A DNA stretch of 37,557 nt, taken from the IMG/VR virus record IMGVR_UViG_2588253749_000008, one strand, 5' to 3'. The notes beneath the pieces were generated by a model. That model was not told where the DNA came from. It did no database searches and saw only the letters and a list, made by a program, of their open reading frames with translations. The stretch is from a virus (Duplodnaviria > Heunggongvirae > Uroviricota > Caudoviricetes). The stretch's first letter is position 1; each line of letters opens with the position of its first letter. This document shows positions 1,818 through 20,315 of this stretch, one piece after another. Both the position numbers and the translations under genes were made by a program.

Positions 1818-1832
1818 GTTGGAGTCATTACC

Positions 1833-2012: not shown

Positions 2013-2039
2013 GATTGTGGCTAAGCCACATGATTTATG

Positions 2040-2933: not shown

Positions 2934-2937
2934 TTTG

Positions 2938-4123: not shown

Positions 4124-4314
4124 AGCGACCTCCCTTAACGTGGTGTTGCCGCTATTCTAGATTGTACGATCCCTAATTCCAACTAACAGCTCGCTCTGTG
4201 CGAAGAGTGAAAATTGAACTTTCAATAGTTGTTGAACTTCCATACATCCAATGTGAAAATTCATACGTTCATAATAGTTAAAATTTAAAATATTGTATAT
4301 CAGGTGAATAAAGC

Positions 4315-5337: not shown

Positions 5338-5365
5338 GCAATCAACCTTACATAGGGATGACAAA

Positions 5366-5402
5366 GTCCGCTTCTGACACGGAGCGGACCGTCGTTTATG
5401 TT
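5366..5402 (+). terminator. Putative terminator of the cargo gene (GTCCGCT...AGCGGAC hairpin)
   Basis: Inverted repeat then a weak T-rich tract (CGTCGTTTATGTTT). Confidence 0.4.
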
Positions 5403-5457: not shown

Positions 5458-6568
5458 TCACTCTGTTTCTGCTATCCATTCCGGGATTTTTGCCTCAAGC
5501 TCAAGCTGTGTGGTAAAGCCGCTGTTATCAATGGTGTGCTCGGCTTTCGCAATAATCCAGTCCTGATTATCAATCTCGCTTTTAAATCCTGTTACCGTGC
5601 CATGCATTTCGGGGTAGAGTTTCTGCACGTCCACGCACCAGCGTGATGGAAAACGATGCGGCTCCGCGTTGTAGCTGCTGCCACTTTGCCGCCGCTGCGC
5701 GTCTTGCTGCCTGCTCGTTCTGATAAGTCTTGCGTAACACAAACACATTGCCTTCCGCGCCTTCCATATAATCACCTTCACGGCTGCTGCTTTTCTCCTT
5801 TTTGGGTTTTGGCGGTTTGCGGCGTTTCACGCTGACTTTTTTCTTTTTCCCGTAATTAAGATCAAGCCAGTAAGCGCGTACCCCCGTATACGCCTCGCGG
5901 TCAGCAATGCGGAACTGATGGCGATCGCCGCTGCTGCGTGTGATGGCGAACGATGGCAACGGCTGGCCCTGTGCGTTTACGCCACCGCCGGGCATGATGA
6001 ATAACAGATTACCGCTTTTTACCGTGGTGATTGCGCCCAGCATTTCCGCCATGCGCGTAAGGAAGGACATGTCGCTTTCTTCAGTCTGGTCGGCGTGGTC
6101 GATTTCGATATCCATCAGCATTTCGCTGATTTGCGGTTTCAGGCCGTACCGATGAGCGATGGCGGATACCACACGTTCAACGGTCACATCATGCCAGGAC
6201 GCCTCACGTTTAACATTAAATTCATCCCGAAAATCTGCGCTTCTGGCTGAAACAGTCAGCCTGTCCGGCGGTCCTTCGTGAGCGATTTCATCAACAATGT
6301 AAGTGCCTTTTTCTGTCAGCGGTTCCCCTTTCCAGCCAATGAGAACCGTCAGACGCGCGCCCCGTGGCGGTAGCTGCAACTGGCCATCGGCATCATCCAG
6401 CGTGATGGTGAGCTGGTCCGCCTCAAATCCCCGGTTGTCGGTCAGTGACAGGCTCATCAGGCGTTCTGCCACGCCGGACAGCGTTTTACCCTCGGCGAGA
6501 ATATCAAAATCCGGCATTTTCACGGGGTCTGTGCCCTGACTGAGCAATTGCATGGTGGTGTCGGTCAT
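5458..6568 (-). pseudogene. D: P2 gpD-like tail protein, interrupted by an apparent +1-nt frameshift near 5625-5640
   Basis: N-terminal 329 codons in one frame (ORF 5582-6700, start reassigned to ATG at 6568 with GGGAGGGAG RBS); conserved C-terminal 45 residues (HGTVTGFKSEID...GFTTQLELEAK) in the overlapping ORF 5458-5781; junction at GCAGAAACTCTACCCCGAAATG. Confidence 0.7.
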
Positions 6569-6621
6569 CTGCTCCCTCCCTGTGTGGCATGGTCGCATGT
6601 GCGTGCGGAGGGGGTTACTGC

Positions 6622-6656
6622 TTTTTGTTGTCGCCGTGGCGGGAGAATGGCGCAGG
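6622..6656 (+). promoter_or_regulatory. Candidate Ogr-dependent late promoter upstream of FI
   Basis: CTTTTTGTTGT-N12-AGAA...CAGGGG, the same motif pattern as upstream of P at 24258-24292; resembles the P2 late-promoter TGT-N12-ACA element (from memory). Confidence 0.3.
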
Positions 6657-6725
6657 GGTGAGATTACGCGCGTGGTGGGTGATGATTGTTGCCGAATCAT
6701 TTAACGGATACAAGGGGCTGAAGCT

Positions 6726-7910
6726 ATGAGTGAAACTCGTTTTCATGGTGCCCGTGTTACGGAAAATACCGACCTGGTAACAGCGATTAACGATGTTGAT
6801 TCCAGCGTTATCGGTATCGTGGCAACGGCGGATGATGCGGACGCGAAGCTGTTCCCGCTGAACAAGCCCACACTGCTGACCCGCGTCAATGACGTGCTGG
6901 GAAAATGCGGGACAACGGGGACGCTTTATCGTGCGCTTAAGGCCATCGCAGACCAGGTGAGCACAAAGGTGATCGTCGTTCGCGTGGCTGAACACAAAGA
7001 AGAAGACGGAAAGACGCAGGATCAACTGGTTATCGGTGGTTCTGAGGATGACGGCAGCTATACGGGGATGTATGCGCTGCTTGTTGCAGAGCAGGATGAA
7101 AGCATCGGATACCGTCCGCGTATTCTGGCCGCGCCGGAGCTGGACACGGAGGCTGTAACAAAATCCCTGTGCGTGATTGCAGGTAAACTGCGCGCGTTTG
7201 TGTATGCCTCATGTCACGGCTGTAACACGATGGCTGAGGCGATTACCTACCGCCAGAAATTCAACGAACGTGAGGTGATGCTCTTATGGCCGGACTTCAT
7301 CGCCTACAACCCGAAAAGTGGCAAAAACGAAACGTTCCCCGCGCCTGCCTATGCGTGCGGCCTTCGTGCGTACATTGACCATGAGCAGGGATGGCACAAA
7401 TCACTGTCCAACGTTCCGGTTAAAAATGTGCTGGGGATGTCGAGGCATGTGTTCTGGTCGTTACAGGCCGAAGACAGTGATGCCAACAGCCTCAACAACA
7501 AAGAAATCACGACCATTATTCGTCGCAACGGGTTCCGCTTCTGGGGCAACCGCACACCGGAAACGAACGCCTACATCTTTGAGGTGTATACCCGAACCGC
7601 ACAGGTGCTGGCTGATTCAATTGCGGAAGCGCAGTTTGAAACCATCGACAGTCCACTGACGCCTGCGAACGTGAAGGATGTTATCAGTGCCATCAGGGCA
7701 AAACTGGATTCACTGGTTACTGCCGGGAAACTGATTGGCGCGGAGTGCTGGTATGACGTGGTGGATAACAGCACCACGGATTTACGTCAGGGGCGTGTGC
7801 GTATTCGCTACAAATATACGCCCGTTCCGCCACTGGAAGACATGGAGCTTTACCAGACGTTTACTGATGAATACTTTGAACCCGCATTTGCGGTTCTGGG
7901 AGGTGCCTGA
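6726..7910 (+). CDS. FI: Tail sheath protein (gpFI)
   Basis: 394 aa; long blocks match P2 FI as recalled (LNKP, RAF.Y...GC.T, WPDF, DQEQGWHK.LSNV, IRR.GFRFWGNRT, YTRTAQV, YTPVPPLE). Confidence 0.9.
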   Translation: MSETRFHGARVTENTDLVTAINDVDSSVIGIVATADDADAKLFPLNKPTLLTRVNDVLGKCGTTGTLYRALKAIADQVSTKVIVVRVAEHKEEDGKTQDQLVIGGSEDDGSYTGMYALLVAEQDESIGYRPRILAAPELDTEAVTKSLCVIAGKLRAFVYASCHGCNTMAEAITYRQKFNEREVMLLWPDFIAYNPKSGKNETFPAPAYACGLRAYIDHEQGWHKSLSNVPVKNVLGMSRHVFWSLQAEDSDANSLNNKEITTIIRRNGFRFWGNRTPETNAYIFEVYTRTAQVLADSIAEAQFETIDSPLTPANVKDVISAIRAKLDSLVTAGKLIGAECWYDVVDNSTTDLRQGRVRIRYKYTPVPPLEDMELYQTFTDEYFEPAFAVLGGA

Positions 7911-8422
7911 TGGCTGTGCCAAAACATCTTCGCTTTTTTACGCTGTTTGTGGATGGTGAAAACGAAGTGGGTAAGGTGACGTCCGTCACTCTGCCCAAAC
8001 TGACGCGCAAAACCGACAGCTACCGGGGTGGTGGCATGATGGGGGCGGTAAGTATTGATCTCGGTCTGGACGACTCTGCGCTTGATGCGAGCTTTGTCAT
8101 GGGGGGCGCAGTTCGTGCGCTGTTCCTTAAGTATGGCGGCACGATTGACGGCACGCTGCTGCGTTTTGCGGGTGAATACTACACCGATGCAGAAAGCGAC
8201 CTGTATGAAGTCGAAATGCGCGGACGTGTGACGGAAATTGATATGGGGGAAGCCAAACAGGGCGAAGCCACATCACACACTTACGCCATTAAAAACACCT
8301 ACTACAAGCTGAGTGTTAACGATCGCCCGTTGTGGGAGATTGACCTGCTGAACTTCATTTACCGGAAGGACGGCAAGGACATTGTGTCCGATCGCATCCG
8401 TTCCGCGCTTGGGCTTGGCTGA
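7910..8422 (+). CDS. FII: Tail tube protein (gpFII)
   Basis: 170 aa, immediately after FI; size and position match P2 FII. Confidence 0.85.
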   Translation: MAVPKHLRFFTLFVDGENEVGKVTSVTLPKLTRKTDSYRGGGMMGAVSIDLGLDDSALDASFVMGGAVRALFLKYGGTIDGTLLRFAGEYYTDAESDLYEVEMRGRVTEIDMGEAKQGEATSHTYAIKNTYYKLSVNDRPLWEIDLLNFIYRKDGKDIVSDRIRSALGLG

Positions 8423-8476
8423 TAAGTAATATGCAGGCGGCGCAGTGCGTCGCCTCTGACTGAAAGGAGTTTCCTG

Positions 8477-8842
8477 ATGAAAGAGACGAAAAACATCGAT
8501 ACCGAAAACACGGTAGTTACTGACACTGTGAAAGAAACCAGTGAGCGTGGCGTAAAACTTACCCAACCAATTGAGCGAGGCGGCGAAAAAATCACGTATG
8601 TGGAGATCACCGGGGCTATTGAGCAGGCTGGATCTCTGCGAGATTTGTCGCTGTCTGATGTGCTGAATCTGAAAGCGGAATCCATGTTTACGCTGCTGTC
8701 ACGCGTGACATCACCGCGACTGGATGAAGTGACGATCAAAAAAATGGCATCCCGTGACTTTATTCAGTTATGTGTGGTTGCCGTAAATTTTTTGAGCGGT
8801 GCGGACTCTGGCGGGAAGAACGAACAGGCGACGGAAGCCTGA
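8477..8842 (+). CDS. E: Tail assembly chaperone gpE (zero-frame product)
   Basis: Position between FII and T; contains the T-TTT-TTG slippery heptamer at 8788-8794. Confidence 0.75.
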   Translation: MKETKNIDTENTVVTDTVKETSERGVKLTQPIERGGEKITYVEITGAIEQAGSLRDLSLSDVLNLKAESMFTLLSRVTSPRLDEVTIKKMASRDFIQLCVVAVNFLSGADSGGKNEQATEA

Positions 8843-9006
8843 TCACGGTTGTGTGCTTTGAGCACATAGAAGACTTTGTGGCAGATATTGCCGTTATTTT
8901 TAACTGGTCGCCCGCCGAAATCTTCATGATGACGCCCGGCGAAGTGGTTAGCTGGCGTGAGCGGGCGGCACTTCGCAGCGGGAATGCAGACAATGAAGAC
9001 TCTTGA
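8477..9006 (+). CDS. gpE+E' fusion made by programmed -1 frameshift at TTTTTTG (8788-8794)
   Basis: The -1 frame after the heptamer continues ERCGLWREERTGDG...FNWSPAEIFMMTPGEVVSWRERAALRSG to a stop at 9006; analogous to P2 E/E' and lambda G/GT. Confidence 0.7.
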
Positions 9007-11800
9007 TATCCGGGTCGCTTTCAGCGCCGTTGACAGGCTGACCCGGCCTGCCGAAAACGCCCGCCGCCTGATGGGGCAGTTTGGTGACTCCATCCAGCGA
9101 ACGCAGGGGGCGATCAAAAATCTCGAGCGTCAGGCGCGATCATTTGAGCGCGCCCGCGACGCTGTCAGTAAAGCGGATGCTGGCATATTGAAAGCACGAC
9201 GCCAGCTTAACGCCCTTAATCAGTTACAACGCACGGGTACAGTGCTCAGCGAAAAACAACAAAAGCTGATGCAGCAGTTAAGCACCCGGCTTGAACACCT
9301 GAATGAATCGCGCACACGTGAAATTCAGAAAATGCGGGAGCTTGGCGGAGAGCTGAAACGCCACGGCATTTCCCTGACAGGCAGCGATAACACCATCCAG
9401 CAGGCCATCAGACGCACCGAACAGTACAACAACCAGCTTGAACGCGAACGGCAGGCGCTTGCGCGTGTAACGCGGGCGCGTGAGCGGTATTCGCGCGCGC
9501 AGGAAACTGCGGGAAAACTGAAAACAGGTGGTGCGCTGGCAATTGGTGCGGCAGCGGCTGGCGGCTATGCTGCCGGGCGTTTTTTGCAGCCTGCGATCGG
9601 GTTCGGGAAAGAGATGTCCCGCGTTCAGGCACTGACGCGAATCGACAAAAACAGCCCGCAGTTTAAGGCGCTGCGTGAGCAGGCGTTAAAACTTGGCTCT
9701 GAAACACAGTTTACTGCGAGTGATGCCGCCAGTGGGCAGAGCTTTCTGGCAATGGCTGGTTTTACTCCGCAGGCCATTCAGGCCGCATTGCCCGGTGTTC
9801 TTAATATGGCGCTGGCAGGTGGCGTCGAACTCGGCGAGACGGCTGATATAGGCTCCAATATCCTCACACAATTCAACCTGACAGCCGATCAAATGGACCG
9901 TGTTGGCGATACGCTGACAGCAGCATTCACCCGGACCAATACTGATTTACGCGCGCTGGGCGAAACCATGAAGTATACCGGTCCGGTTGCCGCAAAACTT
10001 GGTATCAGTCTTGAAGAAGCGGCAGCCATGGCCGGGATGCTTGCCAATAATGGTCTTCGTGGAAGCGATGCTGGTACAGCCATGCGCGCAAGTCTGTCCC
10101 GCCTTGCATCACCGCCAAAAGCTGCGGCTGATGCGCTGAAAGAGCTGGGGGTGTCAGTTGCTGACGCCAGAGGCAAAATGCGCCCGATGGAGGATGTGCT
10201 GCTTGATCTCTATAAGGCGACACAAAAATACGGACAGGTGGACCAGGTCTCCTTCTTCAAGGACATCGCCGGAGAAGAGGCGTTCGTTGGTTTGCAGACG
10301 CTTGTTGCGGCGGCTGGTTCAGGAGAGCTGCAAAAACTGACCAGAGAATTGCAGGGGGCAAGGGGAGAGGCCGATCGCGTTGCAAAAGTAATGGCCGATA
10401 ATCTTGATGGGGACCTGAAAAATCTCGACAGCGCATGGGAAGGTCTTCGTATTCGCATCAGTGATCTGGTTGACGGTCCGCTGCGTTCTGTCACGCAGTG
10501 GCTCACGCGGGTGCTTGAAAAAATCACCTCGCTGGCGCAGGCCCATCCGGTACTGACGCGCCAGCTACTGATAGCAGGCGGTGCGTTGCTGGCAATGACT
10601 GCAACGGTTGGCTCGTTGTCGCTGGCTATTGGTGTGCTTGCTGGCCCGCTGGCAAAACTGCGTCTTGGCTTTTCCCTCCTGACCGGTTCAATGAATGCTG
10701 TCAGACTCCTGCCAGCACTATGGGGAATGGTGACGGGTTCCGTTTCGTTACTGGGGGGCGCTATCGGGGCGTTGTTCAGTCCGGTCGGTCTTATCGTGGC
10801 TGCGCTTGCCGGAGCTGCCGTTCTCATCTGGAAATACTGGGATCCCATCAGGGCATTTTTTGCCGGGGTGTTCAGCGGGATTATGGAAAGGCTGACCCCG
10901 TTGCGCGAAACCTTTGAACGGTTTGGTCCTGTTTTTGACGCAATCGGAAGCGGGATCAGCCAGGTGTTTAACTGGTTTAAATCGCTGTTGTCACCGATGG
11001 AGTCCAGCAAGGAAACGCTGGATAAATGTACCAGTGCTGGCGAGATATTCGGTAACGTTCTTGGCGGTGCGTTACAACTTGTTCTGACACCTGCAAAAAT
11101 GCTACTGGATACGCTGGCGTGGATACTTGAAAAACTTGGCGTCCTTCCGGATGAAGCGGAAAGGGCGCGCAAGAAAATCGAAGACGCACAGCGTGAGGCC
11201 ATTCTTCAGGACAAGGTTGCCTTGCTTCAGGGGGACCTGGCGAAAATCAATCCGCCGAAGCCTGTGGAAAATGGCAATGGCACCGGAGGTGATAACCCCA
11301 AAGACAATAAACCGCTCACAGACAGCAATACCGGTACGCTGCGCAGACTCAGCAAAATTGCTGATAACACAGGTAAGCTGGTTGAGGAGACGAAAAAACG
11401 CATTGGCCCCGGCGATATTGTCTTTAAGAACCTGCCCCGAGCACTTGCTGTTCGTGGGGAGTGGCAGGAGCGGAAGATTGCGCAGGTCAGTAAGCCTGCC
11501 CCCGCAATTAATATCACACCCGTGGTCTCGGCTCCGCTGCCTCCGGCGCTGGTCCCTGTTGTTGCGGCCAGCTCCCGCCCGGTGGCGGAGGCTATACGAT
11601 CTCCAGTGGCATCAGTTCCTGTAACTTCCCGTAACCGGGAGCCTGTTGCCTCCGGATTTGGTGGTGAAATTCATGTTCATCTGCATAACGTTGTTACGCA
11701 GAATCCCCGCGAACTGGCGAAACTGGTCGGTGAAATGGTCAGGGCAGAAATGGAACGGCGCGCCCGTGCCGGGCGTGGCAGTTTTTACGATAAAGATTGA
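8984..11800 (+). CDS. T: Tail tape-measure protein (gpT)
   Basis: About 940 aa, coiled-coil-rich N-terminus, Gly/Ala-rich hydrophobic middle, located between E' and U; start set at ATG 8984 (MQTMKTLDI). Confidence 0.85.
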   Translation: MQTMKTLDIRVAFSAVDRLTRPAENARRLMGQFGDSIQRTQGAIKNLERQARSFERARDAVSKADAGILKARRQLNALNQLQRTGTVLSEKQQKLMQQLSTRLEHLNESRTREIQKMRELGGELKRHGISLTGSDNTIQQAIRRTEQYNNQLERERQALARVTRARERYSRAQETAGKLKTGGALAIGAAAAGGYAAGRFLQPAIGFGKEMSRVQALTRIDKNSPQFKALREQALKLGSETQFTASDAASGQSFLAMAGFTPQAIQAALPGVLNMALAGGVELGETADIGSNILTQFNLTADQMDRVGDTLTAAFTRTNTDLRALGETMKYTGPVAAKLGISLEEAAAMAGMLANNGLRGSDAGTAMRASLSRLASPPKAAADALKELGVSVADARGKMRPMEDVLLDLYKATQKYGQVDQVSFFKDIAGEEAFVGLQTLVAAAGSGELQKLTRELQGARGEADRVAKVMADNLDGDLKNLDSAWEGLRIRISDLVDGPLRSVTQWLTRVLEKITSLAQAHPVLTRQLLIAGGALLAMTATVGSLSLAIGVLAGPLAKLRLGFSLLTGSMNAVRLLPALWGMVTGSVSLLGGAIGALFSPVGLIVAALAGAAVLIWKYWDPIRAFFAGVFSGIMERLTPLRETFERFGPVFDAIGSGISQVFNWFKSLLSPMESSKETLDKCTSAGEIFGNVLGGALQLVLTPAKMLLDTLAWILEKLGVLPDEAERARKKIEDAQREAILQDKVALLQGDLAKINPPKPVENGNGTGGDNPKDNKPLTDSNTGTLRRLSKIADNTGKLVEETKKRIGPGDIVFKNLPRALAVRGEWQERKIAQVSKPAPAINITPVVSAPLPPALVPVVAASSRPVAEAIRSPVASVPVTSRNREPVASGFGGEIHVHLHNVVTQNPRELAKLVGEMVRAEMERRARAGRGSFYDKD

Positions 11801-11806
11801 GGAGTC

Positions 11807-12301
11807 ATGGCCATGATGATGATCTACGGCATGTTTGTTTTTGAGCTGCGCACGCTGCCGCATCAGCAGTTACAGCAAAACAAAAGCTGGCGGCATGTGA
11901 AAAATGAACGCGTTAACCGTTCAGCAAGCTGGCAGTATATCGGTGCAGGTGATGATCGCATCGTTCTTTCTGGTGTGCTTTATCCTGAAATTACAGGTGG
12001 CGAAGTGTCGCTGTCGCTGCTGACCACGCAGGCGTATACAGGACGACCCTGGCCTTTGATTGATGGCGTCGGGCAGATTTACGGCATGTATGTCCTGACC
12101 GGAACGAATACGACCCGTTCCGAGTTTGATCGCTACGGTAAGGCGAAAAAGATAGAATTTTCACTGACCCTTGAACGCTGTGATGAGGATTTGCGGGAGC
12201 GCCTGCAATCCTCATCGTTCAGCGATATGCTGTCCGGCTTCAAAGATAAAGTGACATCATCTCTTAACAGCGCGGTCAGTTCAGTTAAAGGGCTGTTCTG
12301 A
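11807..12301 (+). CDS. U: Tail protein gpU
   Basis: 164 aa immediately after T; size and position match P2 U. Confidence 0.8.
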   Translation: MAMMMIYGMFVFELRTLPHQQLQQNKSWRHVKNERVNRSASWQYIGAGDDRIVLSGVLYPEITGGEVSLSLLTTQAYTGRPWPLIDGVGQIYGMYVLTGTNTTRSEFDRYGKAKKIEFSLTLERCDEDLRERLQSSSFSDMLSGFKDKVTSSLNSAVSSVKGLF

Positions 12302-12312
12302 TTTAACACAAA

Positions 12313-12346
12313 AACCGCTAATGACCAGATTAGCGGTTATTTTGTT
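12313..12346. terminator. Bidirectional rho-independent terminator between U and the invertase gene
   Basis: AACCGCTAAT gaccag ATTAGCGGTT flanked by T-runs on both strands; overlaps the invertase stop codon. Confidence 0.55.
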
Positions 12347-12930
12347 TCCTGACTCTTCTCAATTGTTCCGCTTGATTCTCCTGCGGGGTGGTAACGATAA
12401 ATCGTCGATATACCAATGCCGTAAATTATTGCCAGTTGTTTTCTGTCGTGCCCGTTTTTGATCAGCCTTGCTATTTGCTCATGCTGTTCTTTTGTCAGCT
12501 TCGGGCGACGTCCGCCTGTGCGCCCTCGTGCGCGCGCTGCAGCCAGTCCGGCCAGTGTACGTTCAACAATTAATTCACGTTCCATTTCAGCCAGGGCACC
12601 CATCACGTGGAAGAAAAAACGCCCCATTGGAGAAGATGTATCTATGCTGTCGGTCAGACTGCGAAAATTAATCCCTCGCTCCCGTAGTTCCCCGACGAGA
12701 GAAATCAGATGTTTCATGCTTCGCCCGAGGCGATCCAGTTTCCAGACAACCAGCGTGTCGCCTTTTTGAAGGCGCTTTAAAGCGCGTTTTAATCCCGGTC
12801 GGTCTGTCTTTGTCCCGCTTAATTTATCTTCAAATATTTGTTCGCATCCTGCACAAACAAGAGCGTTTCGTTGCAGGTCTGTATTCTGGTCATTTGTTGA
12901 TACGCGAACATAGCCAATAAGCATGATCAT
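12337..12930 (-). CDS. Serine recombinase, DNA invertase (Hin/Gin/Cin/Pin family)
   Basis: 197 aa; N-terminal GYVRVSTNDQ catalytic-serine motif, C-terminal HTH; sits beside the invertible tail-fibre segment. Confidence 0.9.
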   Translation of the reverse strand: MIMLIGYVRVSTNDQNTDLQRNALVCAGCEQIFEDKLSGTKTDRPGLKRALKRLQKGDTLVVWKLDRLGRSMKHLISLVGELRERGINFRSLTDSIDTSSPMGRFFFHVMGALAEMERELIVERTLAGLAAARARGRTGGRRPKLTKEQHEQIARLIKNGHDRKQLAIIYGIGISTIYRYHPAGESSGTIEKSQETK

Positions 12931-12979
12931 CCCCCTGAATAAAAACCGGGGATGATGCCAGTTAGCTGTTACCTCTGCA

Positions 12980-13005
12980 TTTTCTTAAACGTTGGTTTGG
13001 GAGAA
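12980..13005. other. gix/hix-like crossover site A (TTTTCTTAAACG TT GGTTTGGGAGAA)
   Basis: 26-bp imperfect palindrome matching the 12+2+12 invertase-site pattern TTnTCnnAAACC as recalled; inverted relative to site B. Confidence 0.6.
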
Positions 13006-13449
13006 GGTGCTCCAGCTATTGGCGTTCCGTTCTTCTGGCCCTCCGCGGCAATGCCAAATACTGTAATCGACAGCTGGTCCGGTATGGTGTTTTTGAAGTT
13101 CAACGGGGCGAAATTTTCTGCCTCTGATTACCCTGTGCTGGCGAAAGTGTTTCCTTCGCTGGTATTACCTGAAGCCCGCGGTGATTTCATTCGTATCTGG
13201 GATGACGGGCGAGGTGCAGACGGTGGTCGCGAATTATTAAGCTGGCAGGCAGCTACAAACTTTTCTCAGTTTGCCGGGAATATAGGCGAAGGTGCGGGAC
13301 ACGCAATTAACTTTCATGATGGCATCGCCGGAAATCAGCCAGGATTTTCACGATTTAATTTCACCAGTAACTCTGTGGGTGATGGTGTGAATTTTGTTGC
13401 TGTCAGACCGCGAAATATTGCATTTAACTTTCTGGTGAGGGCTAAATAA
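12994..13449 (+). CDS. Silent alternative tail-fibre C-terminal cassette (Sv'-like)
   Basis: Begins at the crossover with LGEGAPAIG, mirroring LGLGEAAK at the crossover inside H; would fuse in frame to the H constant region after inversion. Confidence 0.6.
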   Translation, partial: GLGEGAPAIGVPFFWPSAAMPNTVIDSWSGMVFLKFNGAKFSASDYPVLAKVFPSLVLPEARGDFIRIWDDGRGADGGRELLSWQAATNFSQFAGNIGEGAGHAINFHDGIAGNQPGFSRFNFTSNSVGDGVNFVAVRPRNIAFNFLVRAK

Positions 13450-14042
13450 TGAAACCTGTTTTTGATGAAAATGGGCTGGCTACAGTGCCGGGCGATATGC
13501 GTTGTTTTTATTATGATGCTGAAACATCTGAGTATACGGGCTGGTCTGATGAATATATTAATACTGGCGTAAGTATGCCCGCCTGTTCCACTGGTATTGA
13601 CCCTGGCGAAAACATTCCGGGAAGAGTGGCAGTATTTACAGGTAAGGGATGGAGCCATGAAGAAGACCATCGCAATGAGACTGTTTACTCAATCGAAAAT
13701 GGTGCTGCTGTTACAGTGGATTATATCGGTGCCATCAAAAACGGTTATGTCACGCTTTCACCGTTAACGCCATATGATAAATGGGATGGTGAGAAATGGG
13801 TGACAGATACTAAGGCACAACACGGTGCCGCAGTAGAAGCGGCAGAAGCACAGCGCCAGTCACTGATTGATGCTGCAATGGCTTCCATCAGCCTGATTCA
13901 GCTGAAATTACAGGCCGGGCGGAAGCTGACGCAGGCAGAAACCACCCGGCTTAACGCCGTGCTTGATTACATTGACGCGGTGACGGCAACAGATACGAGC
14001 ACCGCGCCGGATGTCATCTGGCCTGAACTGCCGGAGGCGTAG
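13449..14042 (+). CDS. Tail-fibre assembly protein, alternative copy (Tfa')
   Basis: 197 aa; C-terminal motif DTSTAPDVIWPELPEA parallels the other Tfa copy. Confidence 0.75.
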   Translation: MKPVFDENGLATVPGDMRCFYYDAETSEYTGWSDEYINTGVSMPACSTGIDPGENIPGRVAVFTGKGWSHEEDHRNETVYSIENGAAVTVDYIGAIKNGYVTLSPLTPYDKWDGEKWVTDTKAQHGAAVEAAEAQRQSLIDAAMASISLIQLKLQAGRKLTQAETTRLNAVLDYIDAVTATDTSTAPDVIWPELPEA

Positions 14043-14454
14043 GCCATTCAATATCTGGCGCACCGGAAGTATCGACCAGTTCCAGTGCGTCCAGATAATC
14101 CAGCCACAAATTATATTGCACCAGTTCCTCACCTTTCAGGCGACCAATCGCCGCTTTACCAGGCCATTGCTTACTGTTTATGTATTCGTTGACCTGATTA
14201 ATCAATTGCTGCTTTTCCAGTTCGGCTGCGGCAATTTGTTCCTCATGAGTTGGCGGTGGAATATCAATCCATGCAGGCATTCCGTCGATGACACCTCTGT
14301 ATTTTCCTTCTGGTGCTTCCTTCATAAATTCGGCGGCAACAGTGTCGTCAATTTCGATTCCATCACCGGGCCATTCGCCGGATTCCTGATAAGCGATTTT
14401 AAGCTCCACAGGGAAAAACGCATTTTTATCGGCACTGAAAATATATTTCTGCAT
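14014..14454 (-). CDS. Tail-fibre assembly protein (gpG/Tfa, currently expressed orientation)
   Basis: 146 aa directly downstream of H; C-terminal DTSGAPDIEWPTPP. Confidence 0.8.
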   Translation of the reverse strand: MQKYIFSADKNAFFPVELKIAYQESGEWPGDGIEIDDTVAAEFMKEAPEGKYRGVIDGMPAWIDIPPPTHEEQIAAAELEKQQLINQVNEYINSKQWPGKAAIGRLKGEELVQYNLWLDYLDALELVDTSGAPDIEWPTPPAVQAR

Positions 14455-14456
14455 TT

Positions 14457-15863
14457 CTACCGTCCTATCGAAATATAACTGAATCTGTATTGCTGTGAGA
14501 TATCACTGGTTGCCACACGCCACGCTGAATTACTGATATGTTCAAAATTTACAGACAAAACCTGCGGGGCAGGATTCGACGGGTCTGACTGAACGGCATC
14601 AGACATAACACTGACTGAAATCATCGGCTGATTAGGGAATGGTATAGGGAAGTGTCCACTGATAAAGCGGGTCGTGTTTCCTGAAAAAGTGCCAAACTGA
14701 ACAATATATCCACCTGGTAGCCTGAACCATCCCGAACCAGAAGCGAATGCTCCCATATCCGGTATCTGATTATCTCCTGTGCCCACATCCCTTTTCGCCG
14801 CTTCTCCTAAACCAAGGTATGCGAGAAGACCAGCAACATCCTTTCCACTCAAATTAGTCAGCGTATTGTCCAGCGGTTGTTTGTCTGCCAGTGCATTAAG
14901 CACTGTTGTTGAAAAGTTAGGGTCATTCCCCAGCGCCGCCGCCAGTTCATTCAGTGTATCCAGTGCCGCAGGGGCAGAACCCACCATTGCCGCAATTGCT
15001 GATTTCACAAAAGCTGTGGTGGCAATCTGTGTATTGTTGACCGACTGTGCCGCAGTAGGTGCTGTTGGCGTTCCGGTAAGTGCCGGACTCGATAGCGGCG
15101 CTTTCAGTGCCAGCGCATTGTTAATGGTGGTGCTGAATTTCGGGTCATTGTTAATGGCTGCGGCAATTTCTTTCAGTGTGTCCAGCGTGGCTGGCGCACC
15201 GTTAATCAGATCGGTAATAGCGGCCTGAACAAACTCAGTGGTCGCAATCCGCGTGGTGTTATTTCCTGCGGCAGGCGTCGGCGCTTTTGGTTCTCCGGTA
15301 AATGTCGGATTATGTTTCTGCGCATACTGGGTATGAGGATCCTGTGCGGCAATGTGGTTTCTCATCTGGTCATCCACATACAGCTTTAATTCCAGGACTT
15401 TATCATCCACGTATTTACGGGTCGCCAGTACCACCGACGGGTCGATTTTCAGCGTGATGGCTTCGGTGTTCGTGACAACCAGAATCATGCGGATAGTCTG
15501 GGTGCGTCCACTGCCTTCCTGCAACTGCGGTTTGTACGTTTCCGGGCAGTTTGCCACCGCAATGAGTACACCTTCATCATCATAAAGACCAATCTCACGG
15601 ATCCAGAATCCTCCCTCGTTTTCAGGGATGATTTGCTCAGCAATAATCTGGCTCTGATTGTTAGGGTCAACACTCAGAAGATTCAGCGGTGCAATGCGTT
15701 TCTGGTTAATCAGTTTTGTTTGTGCAGGGTCTGGTGTTGGTAACACACCATTTGCATCACCAACGGCCATTTGCGTCAGATTCAGCTTACTGCCGAGCAT
15801 CGTCGCGTTAGCCAGTCGTGCCGCGCCCTGATTAGTCAGAATGGCGTAGTATTTCACTGTCAT
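14457..15863 (-). CDS. H: Tail fibre protein (gpH): constant N-terminal part plus invertible C-terminal part
   Basis: 468 aa; conserved tail-fibre N-terminus MTVKYYAILTNQGAARLANA; crossover site B lies inside the gene. Confidence 0.9.
   Translation of the reverse strand: MTVKYYAILTNQGAARLANATMLGSKLNLTQMAVGDANGVLPTPDPAQTKLINQKRIAPLNLLSVDPNNQSQIIAEQIIPENEGGFWIREIGLYDDEGVLIAVANCPETYKPQLQEGSGRTQTIRMILVVTNTEAITLKIDPSVVLATRKYVDDKVLELKLYVDDQMRNHIAAQDPHTQYAQKHNPTFTGEPKAPTPAAGNNTTRIATTEFVQAAITDLINGAPATLDTLKEIAAAINNDPKFSTTINNALALKAPLSSPALTGTPTAPTAAQSVNNTQIATTAFVKSAIAAMVGSAPAALDTLNELAAALGNDPNFSTTVLNALADKQPLDNTLTNLSGKDVAGLLAYLGLGEAAKRDVGTGDNQIPDMGAFASGSGWFRLPGGYIVQFGTFSGNTTRFISGHFPIPFPNQPMISVSVMSDAVQSDPSNPAPQVLSVNFEHISNSAWRVATSDISQQYRFSYISIGR
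14802..14827. other. gix/hix-like crossover site B (TTCTCCTAAACC AA GGTATGCGAGAA)
   Basis: Inverted partner of site A, inside H. Confidence 0.6.
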
Positions 15864-16468
15864 GCGTTTACTCTCAGATTATCAATTAAATGAATGGCCG
15901 GGGCAGGGAAATAATCCCCTTCGACAATAATGGACTCCGGGGTGTAGGGATAAACCGTCAGGGCATCGCCGTGATAGCATCCCGTACCAACGAAAATCTT
16001 TCCGTTCACACTCAGGCTGATCGCCAGCCCCGTCAGATGGCGACTTACTGGTTTTGCATCCGCAATAAGGCGCTCAAGTTCCTGATACATTTCATCGGTG
16101 ATGCCCTGATCAAGTACTCCGACAACAATGCGAAATGTTCCTGGCTCCTCGTTGAGTTGCCACCACTCCTTTACTTCAATCAGGTAGCCGAGAGGCTCCA
16201 CGGCTCTTCGCAGTGCGCTGATGGTCCCTTTGTGTCGGTGTATCAGCCATGCATCACGAATCACCTGTCGCTTTGTCTCTTCCGGCCAGTTGCGATCCCA
16301 GCGGTCAACGGAAAACGCCCAGGCGAGATAAGGCAGCAAATGCACCGGGCAGGTGTCCGGTGACCACAGCGTGTTGAGGTCTACCGGGATGTCTGTAATG
16401 CGCGCTCCGACTGCTTCGGCGCAACGCATGAAACGGCTGGCTGATGGCGGTAACAGTGAATTACTCAT
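15860..16468 (-). CDS. I: Baseplate protein gpI
   Basis: Position between J and H; start reassigned to MSNSLLPP. Confidence 0.75.
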   Translation of the reverse strand: MSNSLLPPSASRFMRCAEAVGARITDIPVDLNTLWSPDTCPVHLLPYLAWAFSVDRWDRNWPEETKRQVIRDAWLIHRHKGTISALRRAVEPLGYLIEVKEWWQLNEEPGTFRIVVGVLDQGITDEMYQELERLIADAKPVSRHLTGLAISLSVNGKIFVGTGCYHGDALTVYPYTPESIIVEGDYFPAPAIHLIDNLRVNA

Positions 16469-17357
16469 TGCGCCCACCTTCGCTGATGGTGAATGACTCA
16501 CAGCGCGCCGCCTGTATGTCGCTGATGGCCAGATTCTGTGTGGGTTCGATTATCTCCACGCGTTGCACACCGTGCACATGCAGTGCGGCAGCAATGGCGG
16601 ACAACGCCACGTCCTGACCGATAAGCCCCTGCTCAGCCAGCCACTTCCTGAACGACGATTCAGCCGCCGCCAGAATAGGTTCGGATTCCGGACCGGGGTA
16701 AAAGTACAGTTTTGCATTCAGCCGCCATGTCACGATTCTGGCGCTCTGTACGGTCAGGCGGTCGGCCACCGGGCGGGTATCCTCTGCATTCAGAACGGCG
16801 CGAACGGTATTAAGCAACGCCTCCGTTGCTGTGCCGTCGCCTTCAGTGGACAGGATGGAAACCGTCACATTTGCCGGAGACGGACTGATAGCCCGCGCAT
16901 CACGCACCAGACCGCTGGCGCTGCGGGCAAAATACTCGTATGCACCTGACGGGCCAGCAACACTCAGGCCGTCGTACGCCCGCTGCGCCCGCAGTCTCAG
17001 CGAGGTGTCGCTCTCCATCACCGCGTCGGTGGTATCCGTTGCCGGAGTGATAACCAGGCGCTTTGTGTTCATATTGCCCGCGAGGTTGTCCAGGTCTGTC
17101 CCGGCGCTGTGGCTTAACATGCAGGCGCGTGCCCCCTCGTTAACCCGCTGGCGTAACAGCATTTCACGAAACGACATGGTTTGAGCGATAACGTTAAGGG
17201 GTTCCGATTCCAGCTCCAGCGCGGCGGAAACGGCTTCACGCTGTTCGGCGGGATAAGCCGCAATCATCATGGCCTTTGTGTCAGCCAGAATTGCCTCAAA
17301 GTCAGGCTCCGCGATGATGGCGGGGTCCGGTAACTGTGAAAGGTCAACGGCGGGCAT
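16461..17357 (-). CDS. J: Baseplate protein gpJ
   Basis: 298 aa, size and position match P2 J. Confidence 0.8.
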   Translation of the reverse strand: MPAVDLSQLPDPAIIAEPDFEAILADTKAMMIAAYPAEQREAVSAALELESEPLNVIAQTMSFREMLLRQRVNEGARACMLSHSAGTDLDNLAGNMNTKRLVITPATDTTDAVMESDTSLRLRAQRAYDGLSVAGPSGAYEYFARSASGLVRDARAISPSPANVTVSILSTEGDGTATEALLNTVRAVLNAEDTRPVADRLTVQSARIVTWRLNAKLYFYPGPESEPILAAAESSFRKWLAEQGLIGQDVALSAIAAALHVHGVQRVEIIEPTQNLAISDIQAARCESFTISEGGRNE

Positions 17358-17360
17358 GAT

Positions 17361-17711
17361 TTACTCCCTTAGCGTGATGGTTAATTCAACATTCTGCATG
17401 GTCTGCATGACAGTGCCCGACAGCGTCACCCCGGCGCGGCCTCCCGCTTTCCAGACAACGTCGATGGCATCCAGGGCAATGCGGGGTTCCCATCGTGTCA
17501 GCGCAATCACGGCAGCACTCATGCATTGCAGACGCGTGGTGTTATTCATGGGTTCGTCAATCAAATCAGGCACAAGGCTGCCATATTCCCGTCGCATAAC
17601 CCGGCTTGCCAGCGGGGTGGTCAGGATATCCCTGACTGACTGTTTCAGGTGCTCCATATCGTTCAGGTTTCCCGTCCCGTCCGGATTCATTCCTGTGTAG
17701 CGGGTTGTCAC
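17361..17711 (-). CDS. W: Baseplate wedge protein gpW
   Basis: 116 aa; motifs match P2 W as recalled (RY.GMN, GSRVMRR.YGSL, WEPR). Confidence 0.85.
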   Translation of the reverse strand: MTTRYTGMNPDGTGNLNDMEHLKQSVRDILTTPLASRVMRREYGSLVPDLIDEPMNNTTRLQCMSAAVIALTRWEPRIALDAIDVVWKAGGRAGVTLSGTVMQTMQNVELTITLRE

Positions 17712-18289
17712 TGCGGGCCTCCTGTCGAATCGCTGCCGCCTTTCACGCCACCGTGTTTATGCGTATGCACTGTGATGCCGTTTGAGGTGAAGTTGCCGCC
17801 GCTGTGCGTGATATTGCCGCTCATCTTTCCTCCTTTTGTGACGTCAAGCGTCGCCGTTCTCAGAAGGTTTGTGCATTCCACGACGGGCGTATCCAGTTTC
17901 ACGCTGACGGATGCCTGTAAAGTGGCCGTTTTCATGCCGCTGGCGCTCAGTGCGCCAGCGTCCGCGTCGTAGCGGAACACCGCGCCGTCCGGCGCGCTGA
18001 TCACGATTTCTTTCAGGCTTTTGCCGGGGGCCGGACTGGCATCACTCCACAGGCTGCCAATTATCATGGCGGTTTCCGGGTTGCCGCCAATGCAGGCAAT
18101 TACCACCTGTTCGCCTGGTGATGGCGGCAGCCACACATTGAAGGCTCCCGCGCGCGTGGTGTTCCAGCGCAGCCAGCCTGTTTCCAGTTCGCCGCTGCGA
18201 ACGCGCACGCGCCAGGACTTCTCATCAACTTCAGAGATGATCCCGGTGCGGATGATATTGCTCAGCAGTCGCATGAGTTCTGCGCTCAC
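17708..18289 (-). CDS. V: Baseplate spike/assembly protein gpV
   Basis: 193 aa, position between S and W. Confidence 0.8.
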   Translation of the reverse strand: MSAELMRLLSNIIRTGIISEVDEKSWRVRVRSGELETGWLRWNTTRAGAFNVWLPPSPGEQVVIACIGGNPETAMIIGSLWSDASPAPGKSLKEIVISAPDGAVFRYDADAGALSASGMKTATLQASVSVKLDTPVVECTNLLRTATLDVTKGGKMSGNITHSGGNFTSNGITVHTHKHGGVKGGSDSTGGPQ

Positions 18290-18930
18290 CGTACAGCCTC
18301 CGCAATCCGGCCCAGCACCGTGTTATAAATCAGGCGCTCATCTGCCTGGCTGATACCCAGCAGCTCACGTACCGGGTAATCGGTGAAAATGCCCGGCGCA
18401 ACCTGATCGCGCTTACCGAACTGATGAACGCGGGCAATACGTGCGGCCACGCCGCTGTAACCCACCGTCACACCGGAAGCATCTGCACGTGCTTTCAGGT
18501 AGCGGGCGGTGCGCAGTTTTACGAACATGGGGACGCGCTTTGTGCTGTCCTGGTTGATGCGCCGGGTGCGTATTTCCAGAAAACGGTCGATGTCATCCCG
18601 GTAAAACGTGCGGATATTGTTTTTATCCTTATCCCACCCGGTAATGGTTCGCCCGTATTTCCCCGTGTCGTGATGCCAGTTTTTCAGCGTGCGTGCTTCG
18701 TTATTCCAGATAAAGCGAATGCGTTCCTGTATCCGGGTTACGCGGCGTCTGCGTGGTGTCCACGCGGTCCCGTCCGGCGCTTTCTGTGACCGGATACGCG
18801 CCTGCTGGGCGCGGCGTAAATCCTGTGCCAGCTTTCTGGCGATGTTATTGATGGCCTGCTGATTCAGGCTGTCGCGGATGGCCTCAAAGGTTTCATCCAC
18901 GCGTGTGAATGCCTTATCCATCGCTTTCAC
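18286..18930 (-). CDS. S: Virion morphogenesis / tail completion protein (gpS-like)
   Basis: Position between R and V; 214 aa, larger than P2 S. Confidence 0.65.
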   Translation of the reverse strand: MKAMDKAFTRVDETFEAIRDSLNQQAINNIARKLAQDLRRAQQARIRSQKAPDGTAWTPRRRRVTRIQERIRFIWNNEARTLKNWHHDTGKYGRTITGWDKDKNNIRTFYRDDIDRFLEIRTRRINQDSTKRVPMFVKLRTARYLKARADASGVTVGYSGVAARIARVHQFGKRDQVAPGIFTDYPVRELLGISQADERLIYNTVLGRIAEAVR

Positions 18931-19381
18931 CCCACGTCACATCCTGGAATACATGCGACCAGTCGCCTTCGGAAGATGGTAGGCGGGGTTTTGGCTCCGG
19001 CAGGTGTTCTGCCTGCGGTGTGCCCTGACTGCTGCGCGTGATGCGAACGCGTTCCCGCAGGGGGAGCGTAAACAGGAGATCGGCGCTGTCATCGTCATTG
19101 ATAACGGCGGAGAATTTGATGTCCTGATTACGCTCAGGGTTGAGCAACAACTGTGGCTGATTTTCGGATAACCACGCCAGCAGCGGCAGCGTGAGGTCGT
19201 CCAGCTCCCCGGCGTAATCCATGACAAACATCACCATCTGATAGCGGTAAACAAACGAGGGCGTTTCTCCGGTCGTTTCAATGTTGCCGCTCTCCACGAA
19301 AATGGTGAATTTTTCCGGGTTGGCCTGACACCATCGGCATGAACGGGTCATGGCTTCACGCAGGGAATCAGTTTTCAGCAT
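18914..19381 (-). CDS. R: Tail completion protein gpR
   Basis: 155 aa, same length as P2 R; MLK.DSLR N-terminus. Confidence 0.75.
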   Translation of the reverse strand: MLKTDSLREAMTRSCRWCQANPEKFTIFVESGNIETTGETPSFVYRYQMVMFVMDYAGELDDLTLPLLAWLSENQPQLLLNPERNQDIKFSAVINDDDSADLLFTLPLRERVRITRSSQGTPQAEHLPEPKPRLPSSEGDWSHVFQDVTWGESDG

Positions 19382-19658
19382 GGTTGTTGTCCTCGTTGTT
19401 CAGTCGTTGCAGCCTGCGCTGTTCCAGTAATTCAATGGCCCGTTTATCCGCGTTACAGGTTTCCAGTGCATCCAGAAGGCGGTCGCCCCATATACCGAGA
19501 TTTCCCCATGTGGGAGTGTCAGGGAAGGGGGGAGGCGTTACCGGTATGGTCAGCGTCTGCGGTATAAGCCGGACTGACGGCGCTGGCCGTGGCGCGTTCT
19601 GCGTGCCTGCGCAGCCTGTCAGTAAAACGAGCGTCAGGCAAAGCGTGGGCGCATTCAT
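19368..19658 (-). CDS. lysC: o-spanin (LysC/Rz1-like lipoprotein) embedded in and extending beyond lysB
   Basis: Lipobox LVLLTGC after a short signal sequence; Pro-rich; +1 frame within LysB. Confidence 0.6.
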   Translation of the reverse strand: MNAPTLCLTLVLLTGCAGTQNAPRPAPSVRLIPQTLTIPVTPPPFPDTPTWGNLGIWGDRLLDALETCNADKRAIELLEQRRLQRLNNEDNNHAEN

Positions 19659-19926
19659 CTTTTGCAATATCGTTGCGTAGCTGTTCACGTCTTGCCTCTC
19701 CGTCCTGATTGCGTTGCTGATTTTCCACGCGGAGTTGCGCCAGCACCTGCTGCATATCCTGTACCCCGGCGCTGATGATATTCAGGGTGTCGGCGGTACG
19801 TTTCAGGGTGCTGGCCTGCGCTTCGTTTCTGGCGTTCTCCCGGCCCAGCGACCATGACAGACGCATGGATGTTCCCCATGCGGCAATCAGAAGGAAAGCG
19901 ACACCCAGCGTGGGCCAGAGCTTCAT
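19519..19926 (-). CDS. lysB: i-spanin (LysB/Rz-like)
   Basis: N-terminal TM segment MKLWPTLGVAFLLIAAWG then coiled-coil region; start reassigned. Confidence 0.6.
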   Translation of the reverse strand: MKLWPTLGVAFLLIAAWGTSMRLSWSLGRENARNEAQASTLKRTADTLNIISAGVQDMQQVLAQLRVENQQRNQDGEARREQLRNDIAKDECAHALPDARFTDRLRRHAERATASAVSPAYTADADHTGNASPLP

Positions 19927-20315
19927 GCCGGATAGGCTCCGTGTGGTAACTGAAAATGCGGTCCGTCTTTCAGGGTCTTCCAGTCGCCGCCCCATTCCAC
20001 CGGAATATTCAGCTCCCGGCTGGCCTGTCTGAATGCTGCTGCGATTTTTTCGTACAGCGGCCATTCCCATGACACCTGGCTGCCGATATAAGCCACAACA
20101 TCCACGGCATGCCCCGTAAGGTGGCGGCTGTTCATGGTCTGGCTCTTACCTGTGGCCACAAGTTGCTTCTGGCGGTAACGGCTGCGCAACCCTTCGGTGA
20201 TACCAAAATCCACTTCCGAAATTTCCAGTGCCCGTCGGGTCACTTTCACCAGATCAGGATTTACGCCCTGCAAATTCTTTTCGCTCCGGCTGCTGAATTT
20301 AAATGTGTTGCTCAT
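19923..20315 (-). CDS. Endolysin, peptidase M15-type (L-alanyl-D-glutamate peptidase-like)
   Basis: 130 aa; zinc-ligand motifs SRHLTGHAVDV and DGPHFQ typical of M15 endolysins. Confidence 0.75.
   Translation of the reverse strand: MSNTFKFSSRSEKNLQGVNPDLVKVTRRALEISEVDFGITEGLRSRYRQKQLVATGKSQTMNSRHLTGHAVDVVAYIGSQVSWEWPLYEKIAAAFRQASRELNIPVEWGGDWKTLKDGPHFQLPHGAYPA

Follow-up and report, generated by a model that had tools for sequence, protein, structure and literature searches.

Evidence for a two-state, invertase-driven tail-fibre switch in a P2-family (Gemsvirus) prophage of Escherichia coli

The stretch of viral DNA analysed here (the window, 37,557 nucleotides) carries a P2-family (Gemsvirus) prophage of E. 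coli in which a 1,822-bp segment, measured core to core, very probably acts as a two-state, invertase-driven switch of the tail fibre, and with it of host range, of the kind known from Mu G, P1 C and e14 P. Two inverted 26-bp crossover sites bound the segment, the reading frame of the tail-fibre gene H runs on in either orientation, and the adjacent invertase is intact. Natural genomes hold the segment both ways round, with breakpoints exactly at the cores of the sites. Table 1 presents the features of the locus. The original prediction had likened it to the same three elements, a comparison that proved right, and everything it described is found where it had placed it.

Table 1. Features of the invertible tail-fibre locus, with positions in the window.
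Feature	Position	Strand	Details and evidence
Bidirectional terminator (likely)	12305-12346		Hairpin with 18-nt arms between convergent U and invertase genes
DNA invertase, Gin/Hin/Pin family, 195 aa	12337-12924	-	Pfam Resolvase (PF00239) 1.4e-50; HTH_7 1.7e-13
Candidate recombinational enhancer, 5' part of invertase gene	12817-12879		Two Fis-consensus 15-mers; inferred
Invertase mRNA leader hairpin	12927-12955	-	Pairs with Shine-Dalgarno (GGGGGA); RNA fold
Site L, 26 bp (12+2+12)	12980-13005		Core TT at 12992-12993; sequence, consensus pattern search, breakpoint
Cassette B, silent alternative H C-terminus, 151 aa, collar-type receptor-binding tip	12994-13449	+	PHROG tail-fibre families
Tfa for cassette B, 197 aa	13449-14042	+	Caudo_TAP 5.3e-27; phrog_105 9e-84
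Tfa for cassette A, 146 aa	14014-14454	-	Caudo_TAP 2.8e-33; phrog_188 2.7e-61
Cassette A, expressed H C-terminus, 118 aa, Gp53-like_C	14457-14813	-	PF21882 1.1e-7
Site R, inside H, 26 bp	14802-14827		Core AA at 14814-14815; sequence, consensus pattern search, breakpoint
H constant part, aa 1-350	14814-15863	-	PF12571 1.5e-62; N-terminus P2 H-like

Inspection of the segment ends reveals the arrangement expected of DNA-invertase sites, namely two inverted 26-bp sites with imperfect inverted 12-bp half-sites and identical 2-bp cores. Site L reads TTTTCTTAAACG-TT-GGTTTGGGAGAA and site R reads TTCTCCTAAACC-AA-GGTATGCGAGAA; both are hix/pix-like in type. When read on the same strand, they match at 20 of 26 positions, with 11 of 12 positions shared in the inner half-sites and the same core dinucleotide. 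Inverted 26-bp sites, one of them inside H, had been predicted, and this is what we find. A search of the 37.6-kb window with the consensus TTCTCCNAAACCNNGGTTT, allowing up to three mismatches, returned four hits against 0.33 expected, a number that none of 100 shuffled sequences reached. The four represent two loci only, L and R, each recognized on both strands. Since the two sites have no exact run in common longer than 7 nt, an exact-repeat search seeded at 9 did not detect them, and a consensus pattern search was needed. Multiple-inversion, shufflon-like systems (e.g., Min of p15B) have more than two crossover sites and adopt more than two states. At the same consensus and mismatch limit, no third site was found in the 37.6-kb window.

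The core of site R ends the constant part of H, where its dinucleotide fills the second and third positions of the closing Leu codon (CTT, codon 350). Directly after the core, both cassettes open with GGT TT(G/A) GGA GAA and encode G-L-G-E, as the original prediction had stated for two alternative C-terminal cassettes. The crossover lies in frame within the H ORF and keeps the frame in both orientations, so that the constant part can be joined to either cassette: the window orientation encodes an H of 468 aa and the form flipped in silico one of 501 aa. For cassette A, the PF21882 match spans H residues 381-468, PHROG tail-fibre and virion families are matched at the C-terminal ends of their profiles, and comparison with PDB sequences gave no significant match to a solved structure. 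Cassette B also matches the C-terminal ends of PHROG tail-fibre profiles (5e-52); a Pfam search with its ORF returned no hit, and its PDB match is a weak one to the T4 gp37 tip (2xgf, E 0.005). Downstream of each cassette lies one tfa gene. The two are convergent and both of the Caudo_TAP family, in agreement with the predicted pair of tail-fibre assembly genes, and their 3' ends overlap by 29 bp. Two opposed pairs of C-terminus and chaperone are thereby present, as in the Mu G, P1 C and e14 P elements. The families of the two tips differ (PF21882 versus collar-type, StfE-like), and it is plausible that the tips also differ in receptor and host range.

The invertase ORF spans 12337-12930 on the minus strand, where the ATG of MLIGY at 12924 is the likely true start, and it matches RefSeq WP_000905058.1. 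The gene start lies at a distance of 68 bp from the site L core, with transcription directed away from the segment. A Hin/Gin/Pin-family serine invertase had been predicted beside a segment of ~1.8 kb, and the Resolvase and HTH_7 domains of the 195-aa product bear this out. Alignment to the Gin structures 4m6f (E 3.4e-101) and 3uj3 places S9 within YVRVSTNDQ. The catalytic domain is identical to that of Mu Gin at 121 of 125 residues, and the first 103 residues are those of Gin except for K39R. An inactive enzyme, together with a lack of orientation heterogeneity, had been named as what would speak against a switch; the ORF is intact and Ser9 is present.

In contrast to the catalytic domain, the DNA-binding domain shares 33 of 58 residues with Gin. 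Its recognition helix is Hin-like, and the DNA-binding domain of Hin (1hcr) matches at E 9.5e-14. A Hin-like domain would fit sites of the hix/pix type, with their AA core, and not gix. The stretch encoding the catalytic domain, with the candidate enhancer inside it, shares 92-98% of its DNA letters with Mu gin, and the change from Mu gin-like to Hin-like is abrupt and falls near codon 120. It is conceivable, if rather unlikely, that the invertase is a recent domain chimera of a Mu gin-like catalytic part and a Hin-like DNA-binding domain, and/or that the switch alters the phage susceptibility of the lysogen; what speaks for either idea is this identity profile. If the chimera were real, recombination at the border between the two domains would have reassorted invertase specificity.

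Two 15-mers in the 5' part of the invertase gene (12865-12879 and 12817-12831, centres 48 bp apart) fit the Fis consensus and suggest a recombinational enhancer. Both are unchanged in Mu gin, where their distances from the annotated G-segment boundary are 119 and 167 bp; the corresponding distances to site L in the window are 121 and 169 bp, and the DNA around the 15-mers has 92-98% identity to Mu gin. In Hin, contact with Fis and the enhancer is made by invertase-specific residues, namely Q151, R154 and L155, together with the basic helix B (PMC3798978). Helix B of the prophage enzyme is identical to that of Gin, and its EQIARLI aligns with EQISRLL of Hin with Gln, Arg and Leu retained; in our reading, these would be the Fis-contact residues. 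Folding of the invertase leader (12900-12985, minus strand) yields -28.5 kcal/mol (z = -2.56), a value equalled by 2 of 200 shuffled sequences, and the predicted hairpin may throttle translation of the invertase. At the other end of the gene, the intergenic inverted repeat is terminator-like, with arms 89% complementary and 6 nt between them, and probably terminates transcription from both sides.

Orientation heterogeneity, which the original prediction had proposed as a check, is observed between genomes. E. coli TW10573 contains the same prophage at 99.9% identity with the segment flipped and the flanks collinear, and phage 500465-2 (Peduoviridae, Gemsvirus) is 99.95% identical to the window, again with the segment flipped between collinear flanks. 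The reversed stretch in these relatives is exactly 12992-14818 (or 12989-14815), and comparison with TW10573 brackets the breakpoints at 12992-13006 for site L and 14801-14818 for site R. Flipped H is intact at 501 aa in both (annotated at 1,506 nt in phage 500465-2). The predicted swap of the H C-terminus and its chaperone by inversion is supported. Across 5,426 complete E. coli genomes, the junction of the H constant part with cassette A occurs in 31 and that with cassette B in 27, where the query for the second junction was built in silico and is matched at 100% in TW10573. Furthermore, a 97% identical segment that ends at the sites is found in an unrelated phage background, vB_EcoM-606R2. 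The switch is apparently active, and the polymorphism between strains points to ongoing switching.

Not every observation requires continued inversion. Orientation A is the one present in all three genomes with 100% identity to the window, the leader hairpin could hold invertase expression very low by sequestering the Shine-Dalgarno, and related copies with a truncated invertase exist, as in vB_EcoM-606R2. Each of these would fit a frozen relic, whose orientations stem from rare old events or from invertases of other prophages acting in trans. However, the ORF of the invertase is intact, with a catalytic domain nearly identical to that of active Gin; elements that have diverged by only ~0.05-0.1% differ in orientation, which points to recent flips; and near-equal junctions, 31:27, fit frequent switching. 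We consider a frozen relic highly improbable. In principle, inversion in trans by further Pin-type invertases of the host cell is conceivable.

Slightly less probable still is that the switch mainly serves the lysogen and not the virion, with inversion changing the set of tail-fibre-like proteins in the cell and thereby its susceptibility to other phages. Two reports offer PinQ and PinR of E. coli cryptic prophages as precedents (PMC12529663; bioRxiv 10.1101/2025.03.28.646004), and an in-frame ATG flanks the silent cassette at 12952. Set against this, the prophage looks complete and corresponds to a deposited phage genome, H is part of a late structural operon, and nothing in the window points to expression in the lysogen. 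Least credible of all is an inversion that is not site-specific, arising through RecA recombination between inverted repeats or through misassembly: assemblers can be confused by short inverted repeats, and PGAP annotates H of TW10573 as fragments, but with just 15-18 nt and a mismatch the repeat in common is much too short for efficient RecA action, the breakpoints fall at the 2-bp cores of 26-bp sites that are canonical for invertases, the flipped junction recurs in two independent records and 27 genomes, and the flipped H ORF is intact.

The invertase-driven, two-state switch, the reading we favour, would operate as follows. Gin-like invertase dimers would bind both inverted sites, one upstream of the invertase gene and one at H codon 350, and Fis bound to the enhancer within the 5' invertase gene would lead the dimers to synapse. 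Cleavage of the 2-bp core via Ser9, a 180-degree rotation and religation would then invert the segment and join the 350 constant H codons in frame to either cassette. In state A, the 468-aa H would carry the gp53-like tip and be followed by the 146-aa chaperone, whereas in state B the 501-aa H would carry the collar-type tip and be followed by the 197-aa chaperone. The unused pair of cassette and chaperone would point away from the late promoter and remain silent. A population of lysogens would consequently give rise to virions of two types that differ in the receptors they recognise. The dependence on Fis and enhancer, the rate of switching and the difference in receptor are what we infer within this scheme.

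Comparison with known systems indicates a mixed resemblance. As in the Mu G/Gin system, the invertase gene lies outside the segment and reads away from it, starting 67-68 bp from the neighbouring site or boundary, and the crossover falls within a tail-fibre gene that is served by two opposed cassette-chaperone pairs; the catalytic domain and the presumed-enhancer DNA are likewise close to those of Mu. In contrast, the Mu segment is ~3 kb versus 1.8 kb here, its core is GA/TC versus AA/TT, its invertase shares only 33 of 58 DNA-binding residues with the one here, whose recognition helix is Hin-like, and its host phage is Mu-like and not P2-like. Neither cassette is related to Mu S/S', and a weak match to U' is seen for only one of the two Tfa proteins. 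The e14 P/PinE element of E. coli K-12 is the closest for the cassettes. Its segment is also ~1.8 kb with a 29-bp tfa overlap, and it has the same inner half-site GGTTTGGGAGAAG. Identity to its counterpart in e14 is 77.6% for the invertase (PinE), 63.5% for the 197-aa Tfa (TfaE), 55.6% for the 146-aa Tfa (TfaP) and 41% for cassette B (StfE). Cassette A (gp53-like), in contrast, has no detectable match to StfP, and e14, a lambdoid element, is defective and its tail-fibre gene degraded, whereas the tail-fibre gene here has a P2 H-type N-terminus and resides in a complete-looking P2-family prophage.

Invertase-bearing P2-like phages and prophages (EPEC E2348/69, pro483, Cartapus, 500465-2) belong to the same family and share the same module, in which H, the invertible cassettes and the invertase occur together, downstream of the H-G position (the Z/fun hotspot). 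Fels-2 with Fin is presumably a further example. The region aligns over less than half of its length, at ~91% identity, to pro483 and to the P2-like phage of strain T22. For P2-like EPEC prophages, inversion has been confirmed experimentally by WGS and PCR, and one such locus has three inverted repeats and four states as compared with two sites here (PMC4272514). Relative to phage P2 itself, the N-terminal 350 aa of H are 46% identical (over aa 26-358), with similarity that stops at the crossover, and I, U, D, FI and T are homologous. P2, however, has a single fixed H C-terminus, a single chaperone G and no invertase, and no match to P2 G at E<1e-3 is found for either Tfa.

The carrier itself looks like a complete prophage. 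Pfam identifies P2-type structural and related genes (GpU, GPD, sheath, tube, Tail_P2_I, Baseplate_J, GPW, V, S and R) as well as P2 capsid, GPO, terminase, portal, GPA and integrase, such that the structural, lysis, replication and integrase set is full, and the whole matches a deposited phage genome. The FI-FII-E-T-U block, in contrast to P2, lies on the strand opposite to H and D, and the canonical P2 order and orientation, H-G-(Z/fun)-FI-FII-E-T-U-D all in one direction, are not kept. Phage 500465-2 has the identical FI-U arrangement, which is therefore a feature of the lineage. Flipping of this block by the invertase was considered and rejected, as its flanks contain no invertase site and only chance-level inverted repeats. 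A literature search found no paper on the biology of Gemsvirus or phage 500465-2, and the ETEC genome paper PMC6446980 makes no mention of the phage. The original prediction had assigned the switch to the P2 Z/fun-equivalent position. This stands only loosely: the switch follows the H-G module, as fun(Z) follows H and G in P2, but its neighbour is U and not FI because the FI-U block is inverted, and the placement is not new, with invertases in the P2 Z/fun hotspot already reported (bioRxiv 10.1101/2024.10.15.618418).

The biology is thus already known, since the mechanism, its occurrence in P2-like E. coli prophages and the Z/fun location are in the literature; nothing conceptually new is added, and the value is mostly practical. 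The locus provides a clean, fully resolved case of a tail fibre switched by inversion, from a prophage lineage common in E. coli. The silent tip is routinely annotated as a pseudogene or orphan ORF, H itself was mis-annotated as fragments in the flipped state of TW10573, and prophage-based prediction of host range must weigh both receptor-binding tips.

Two 26-bp crossover sites, L and R, bound an invertible segment of 1,822 bp (core to core) that contains four coding elements: the expressed C-terminus of tail-fibre protein H (cassette A), a silent alternative H C-terminus (cassette B), and their respective Caudo_TAP assembly chaperones, Tfa146 and Tfa197. On one strand, sites L and R are equal at 20/26 positions, where the inner half-sites agree at 11/12, the cores are identical and the mutual orientation is inverted. 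Across the whole 37.6-kb window, the consensus TTCTCCNAAACCNNGGTTT (≤3 mismatches) matches these two sites only, yielding 4 strand-hits versus 0.33 expected, a number reached by 0/100 shuffles. The original prediction described a ~1.8-kb segment beside an invertase, bounded by inverted 26-bp sites with one inside H, and holding two convergent tail-fibre assembly genes and two alternative H C-terminal cassettes; sites, ORFs and Pfam matches agree with this description. The G-L-G-E peptide said to be encoded at both crossovers does open each cassette directly past the core, and the convergent chaperone genes share 29 bp at their 3' ends (14014-14042).

Features of the invertible segment and its surroundings (site cores set off by hyphens)
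Feature	Coordinates	Strand	Size	Sequence	Basis or remark
Site L	12980-13005		26 bp	TTTTCTTAAACG-TT-GGTTTGGGAGAA	Sequence reading of 12280-15900
Site R	14802-14827		26 bp	TTCTCCTAAACC-AA-GGTATGCGAGAA	Sequence reading; within H
Cassette B (silent H C-terminus)	12994-13449	+			ORF list, Pfam search
Tfa197 (Caudo_TAP chaperone)	13449-14042	+	197 aa		ORF list, Pfam search
Tfa146 (Caudo_TAP chaperone)	14014-14454	-	146 aa		ORF list, Pfam search
Cassette A (expressed H C-terminus)	14457-14813	-			ORF list, Pfam search
Tail-fibre gene H	14457-15863	-	468 aa		Contains site R
Serine recombinase (invertase) gene	12337-12924	-	195 aa

The segment is found in both orientations in public databases. Prophages in ETEC strains 503025, 503440 and 503829 are 100% identical to the window. 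E. coli TW10573 (NZ_CP127035.1) has the same element with flanks (10800-13006 and 14801-17500) that are collinear at 99.9% identity, while 12992-14818 aligns reversed at 99.95% identity. The reversed and collinear alignments overlap in the inner half-sites and cores, which places the breakpoints at the cores themselves. Chaperone gene order is swapped in the TW10573 annotation, and the flipped H (3559-5064 of that record) is an intact ORF of 501 aa. Escherichia phage 500465-2 (Peduoviridae, Gemsvirus), 99.95% identical across 6992-20000, also carries the flipped segment, with an annotated H of 1,506 nt. The two possible 750-nt H junctions were constructed, the cassette B junction in silico, and searched in 5,426 complete E. 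coli genomes; constant H is contiguous with cassette A in 31 genomes and with cassette B in 27, where the TW10573 match is 100%. The original prediction named a lack of orientation heterogeneity together with an inactive invertase as grounds for rejecting the switch; flipped genomes and an enzyme with an intact S9 are found instead.

Database labels reflect both states. RefSeq/PGAP divides the TW10573 H into two 'incomplete' pseudogene fragments despite the intact 501-aa ORF, and the displaced cassette appears there as a 99-aa 'gp53-like domain-containing protein'. The genome from which the window derives has its silent cassette labelled a pseudogene 'missing N-terminus'. Such pseudogene and fragment labels, seen in both orientations, are typical annotation artefacts of invertible segments.

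The invertase matches the Pfam families Resolvase and HTH_7, and its closest solved structure is Mu Gin (E 3.4e-101). We favour the MLIGY start on the basis of RefSeq and the Shine-Dalgarno position; a longer ORF, up to 12930, adds 2 residues. Residues 1-103 are those of Gin apart from K39R, with the catalytic serine S9 kept. Identity to Gin is 121/125 in the catalytic domain versus only 33/58 in the DNA-binding domain, whose recognition helix, GISTIYRYHPA, is nearer to that of Hin (GVSTLYRYFPA) than to that of Gin. The Hin-like helix is in keeping with the sites, which resemble hix/pix (AA core) rather than the gix sites of Mu (GA core). At the DNA level, identity to Mu gin is 92-98% from ~100 to 450 nt past the site and then ~50-60%, with a sharp boundary at ~12540-12580 (codons ~115-125) between the Mu gin-like upstream part and the diverged DNA-binding domain downstream. 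By sequence comparison, the enzyme is a mosaic of a Gin catalytic domain and a Hin-like DNA-binding domain. Hin residues Q151, R154 and L155 are invertase-specific Fis-activation residues (PMC3798978). The invertase motif EQIARLI, aligned with Hin EQISRLL, retains Gln, Arg and Leu, which we take to be their equivalents.

Two 15-mers matching the Fis consensus (12865-12879 and 12817-12831), spaced by exactly 48 bp, lie in the Mu gin-conserved part of the invertase gene and represent a candidate Fis enhancer. Mu gin has both unchanged; their distances are 119 and 167 bp to the annotated boundary of the G segment there, and 121 and 169 bp to site L in the window. In the invertase leader, an 8-bp GC-rich hairpin (12927-12955, - strand RNA) pairs with the Shine-Dalgarno sequence just 5' of the start codon (ATG, 12924); folding 12900-12985(-) gives an energy of -28.5 kcal/mol (z = -2.56). 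The Mu gin leader, in contrast, has no such hairpin, which in the window could limit invertase translation. A second hairpin (12305-12346; 18-nt arms, 89% complementary, 6-nt loop gap) lies where U and the invertase gene converge, overlaps the invertase stop codon and probably acts as a bidirectional terminator.

At its end, cassette A carries a Gp53-like_C domain (PF21882, Pfam). PHROG tail-fibre families align to cassette B through their C-terminal ends (5e-52); this cassette also shares 41% identity with e14 StfE and bears a weak likeness to the T4 gp37 tip in its collar region. The e14 proteins TfaE and TfaP are 63.5% and 55.6% identical to the window chaperones, and their genes overlap by the same 29 bp (e14 record 3518-3546). 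P2 H is 46% identical to the constant part of the window H, a likeness that ends at the crossover, and neither window chaperone matches P2 G. An unrelated 42.7-kb phage that is not P2-like, vB_EcoM-606R2 (ON470579.1, 3169-5710), has a copy of the window's 1.8-kb segment that is 97% identical and stops at the sites. Because this copy sits behind a short and different tail-fibre N-terminus, the segment behaves as a portable module. The vB_EcoM-606R2 locus has the look of an exchange of cassettes at the sites; the adjoining DNA invertase gene is truncated (315 nt), and the segment there is probably a frozen copy.

The window is a P2-family prophage, with genes D, FI, FII, E, T, U, invertase, H, I, J, W, V, S and R together with capsid, scaffold, terminase, portal, replication protein GPA and integrase genes. 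P2 has the order H-G-terminator-fun(Z)-FI-FII-E-T-U-D on a single strand. The predicted P2 Z/fun-equivalent position holds in that the switch comes after H, where P2 has G and fun(Z), but not for its neighbour: block FI-FII-E-T-U (6726-12301, + strand) has the opposite orientation to that in P2, such that the invertase adjoins U. D (5582-6700, - strand) keeps the orientation of H on the far side, divergent from FI. Phage 500465-2 has the same inverted U-T-E-FII-FI block beside the invertase over the compared H-to-FI part, which makes the arrangement a feature of the lineage. Site-consensus and repeat searches of the block's flanks returned no invertase site and no meaningful inverted repeat. 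Window 1-5400, left of D, probably represents host or island DNA beside the prophage, or cargo at the prophage end; it contains an IS1 transposase ORF (1314-1817), a T6SS VasI-like gene (2040-2933), a zinc-ribbon protein gene (2938-3270) and a 340-aa ORF (4315-5337) with a weak HEPN (RiboL-PSP) match.

The proposed mechanism draws on the observed sites, reading frames, intact enzyme and natural inversions with core breakpoints. Invertase dimers, for which the enhancer bound by Fis inside the invertase gene is the presumed activator, would bind both sites, and strand exchange at the 2-bp core would invert the segment. The constant region of H, 350 codons ending in the core dinucleotide, would thereby continue in frame into one of the two cassettes, A (with Tfa146 next) or B (with Tfa197 next), and the remaining cassette-chaperone pair would face away from the late operon. 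For this system we infer Fis dependence, switching frequency and differing receptor specificity.

Sequencing of clonal E. coli cultures, with PCR confirmation, has revealed inversions of e14 and P2-like prophages, one variant having three repeats and four states (PMC4272514). Among programmed inversions, neighbourhoods with tail-fibre and 'phage tail protein I' genes are enriched (PMC9881135), and a survey of P2-like hotspots reports that Z/fun often encodes a DNA invertase, with inversion of adjacent genes (bioRxiv 10.1101/2024.10.15.618418). The switch is real, as first read, and belongs to a thoroughly known kind whose concept is already in the literature. Only three points are mildly unusual: the invertase is a mosaic, its ribosome-binding site lies under a leader hairpin, and the tail-sheath operon is inverted in this phage lineage.
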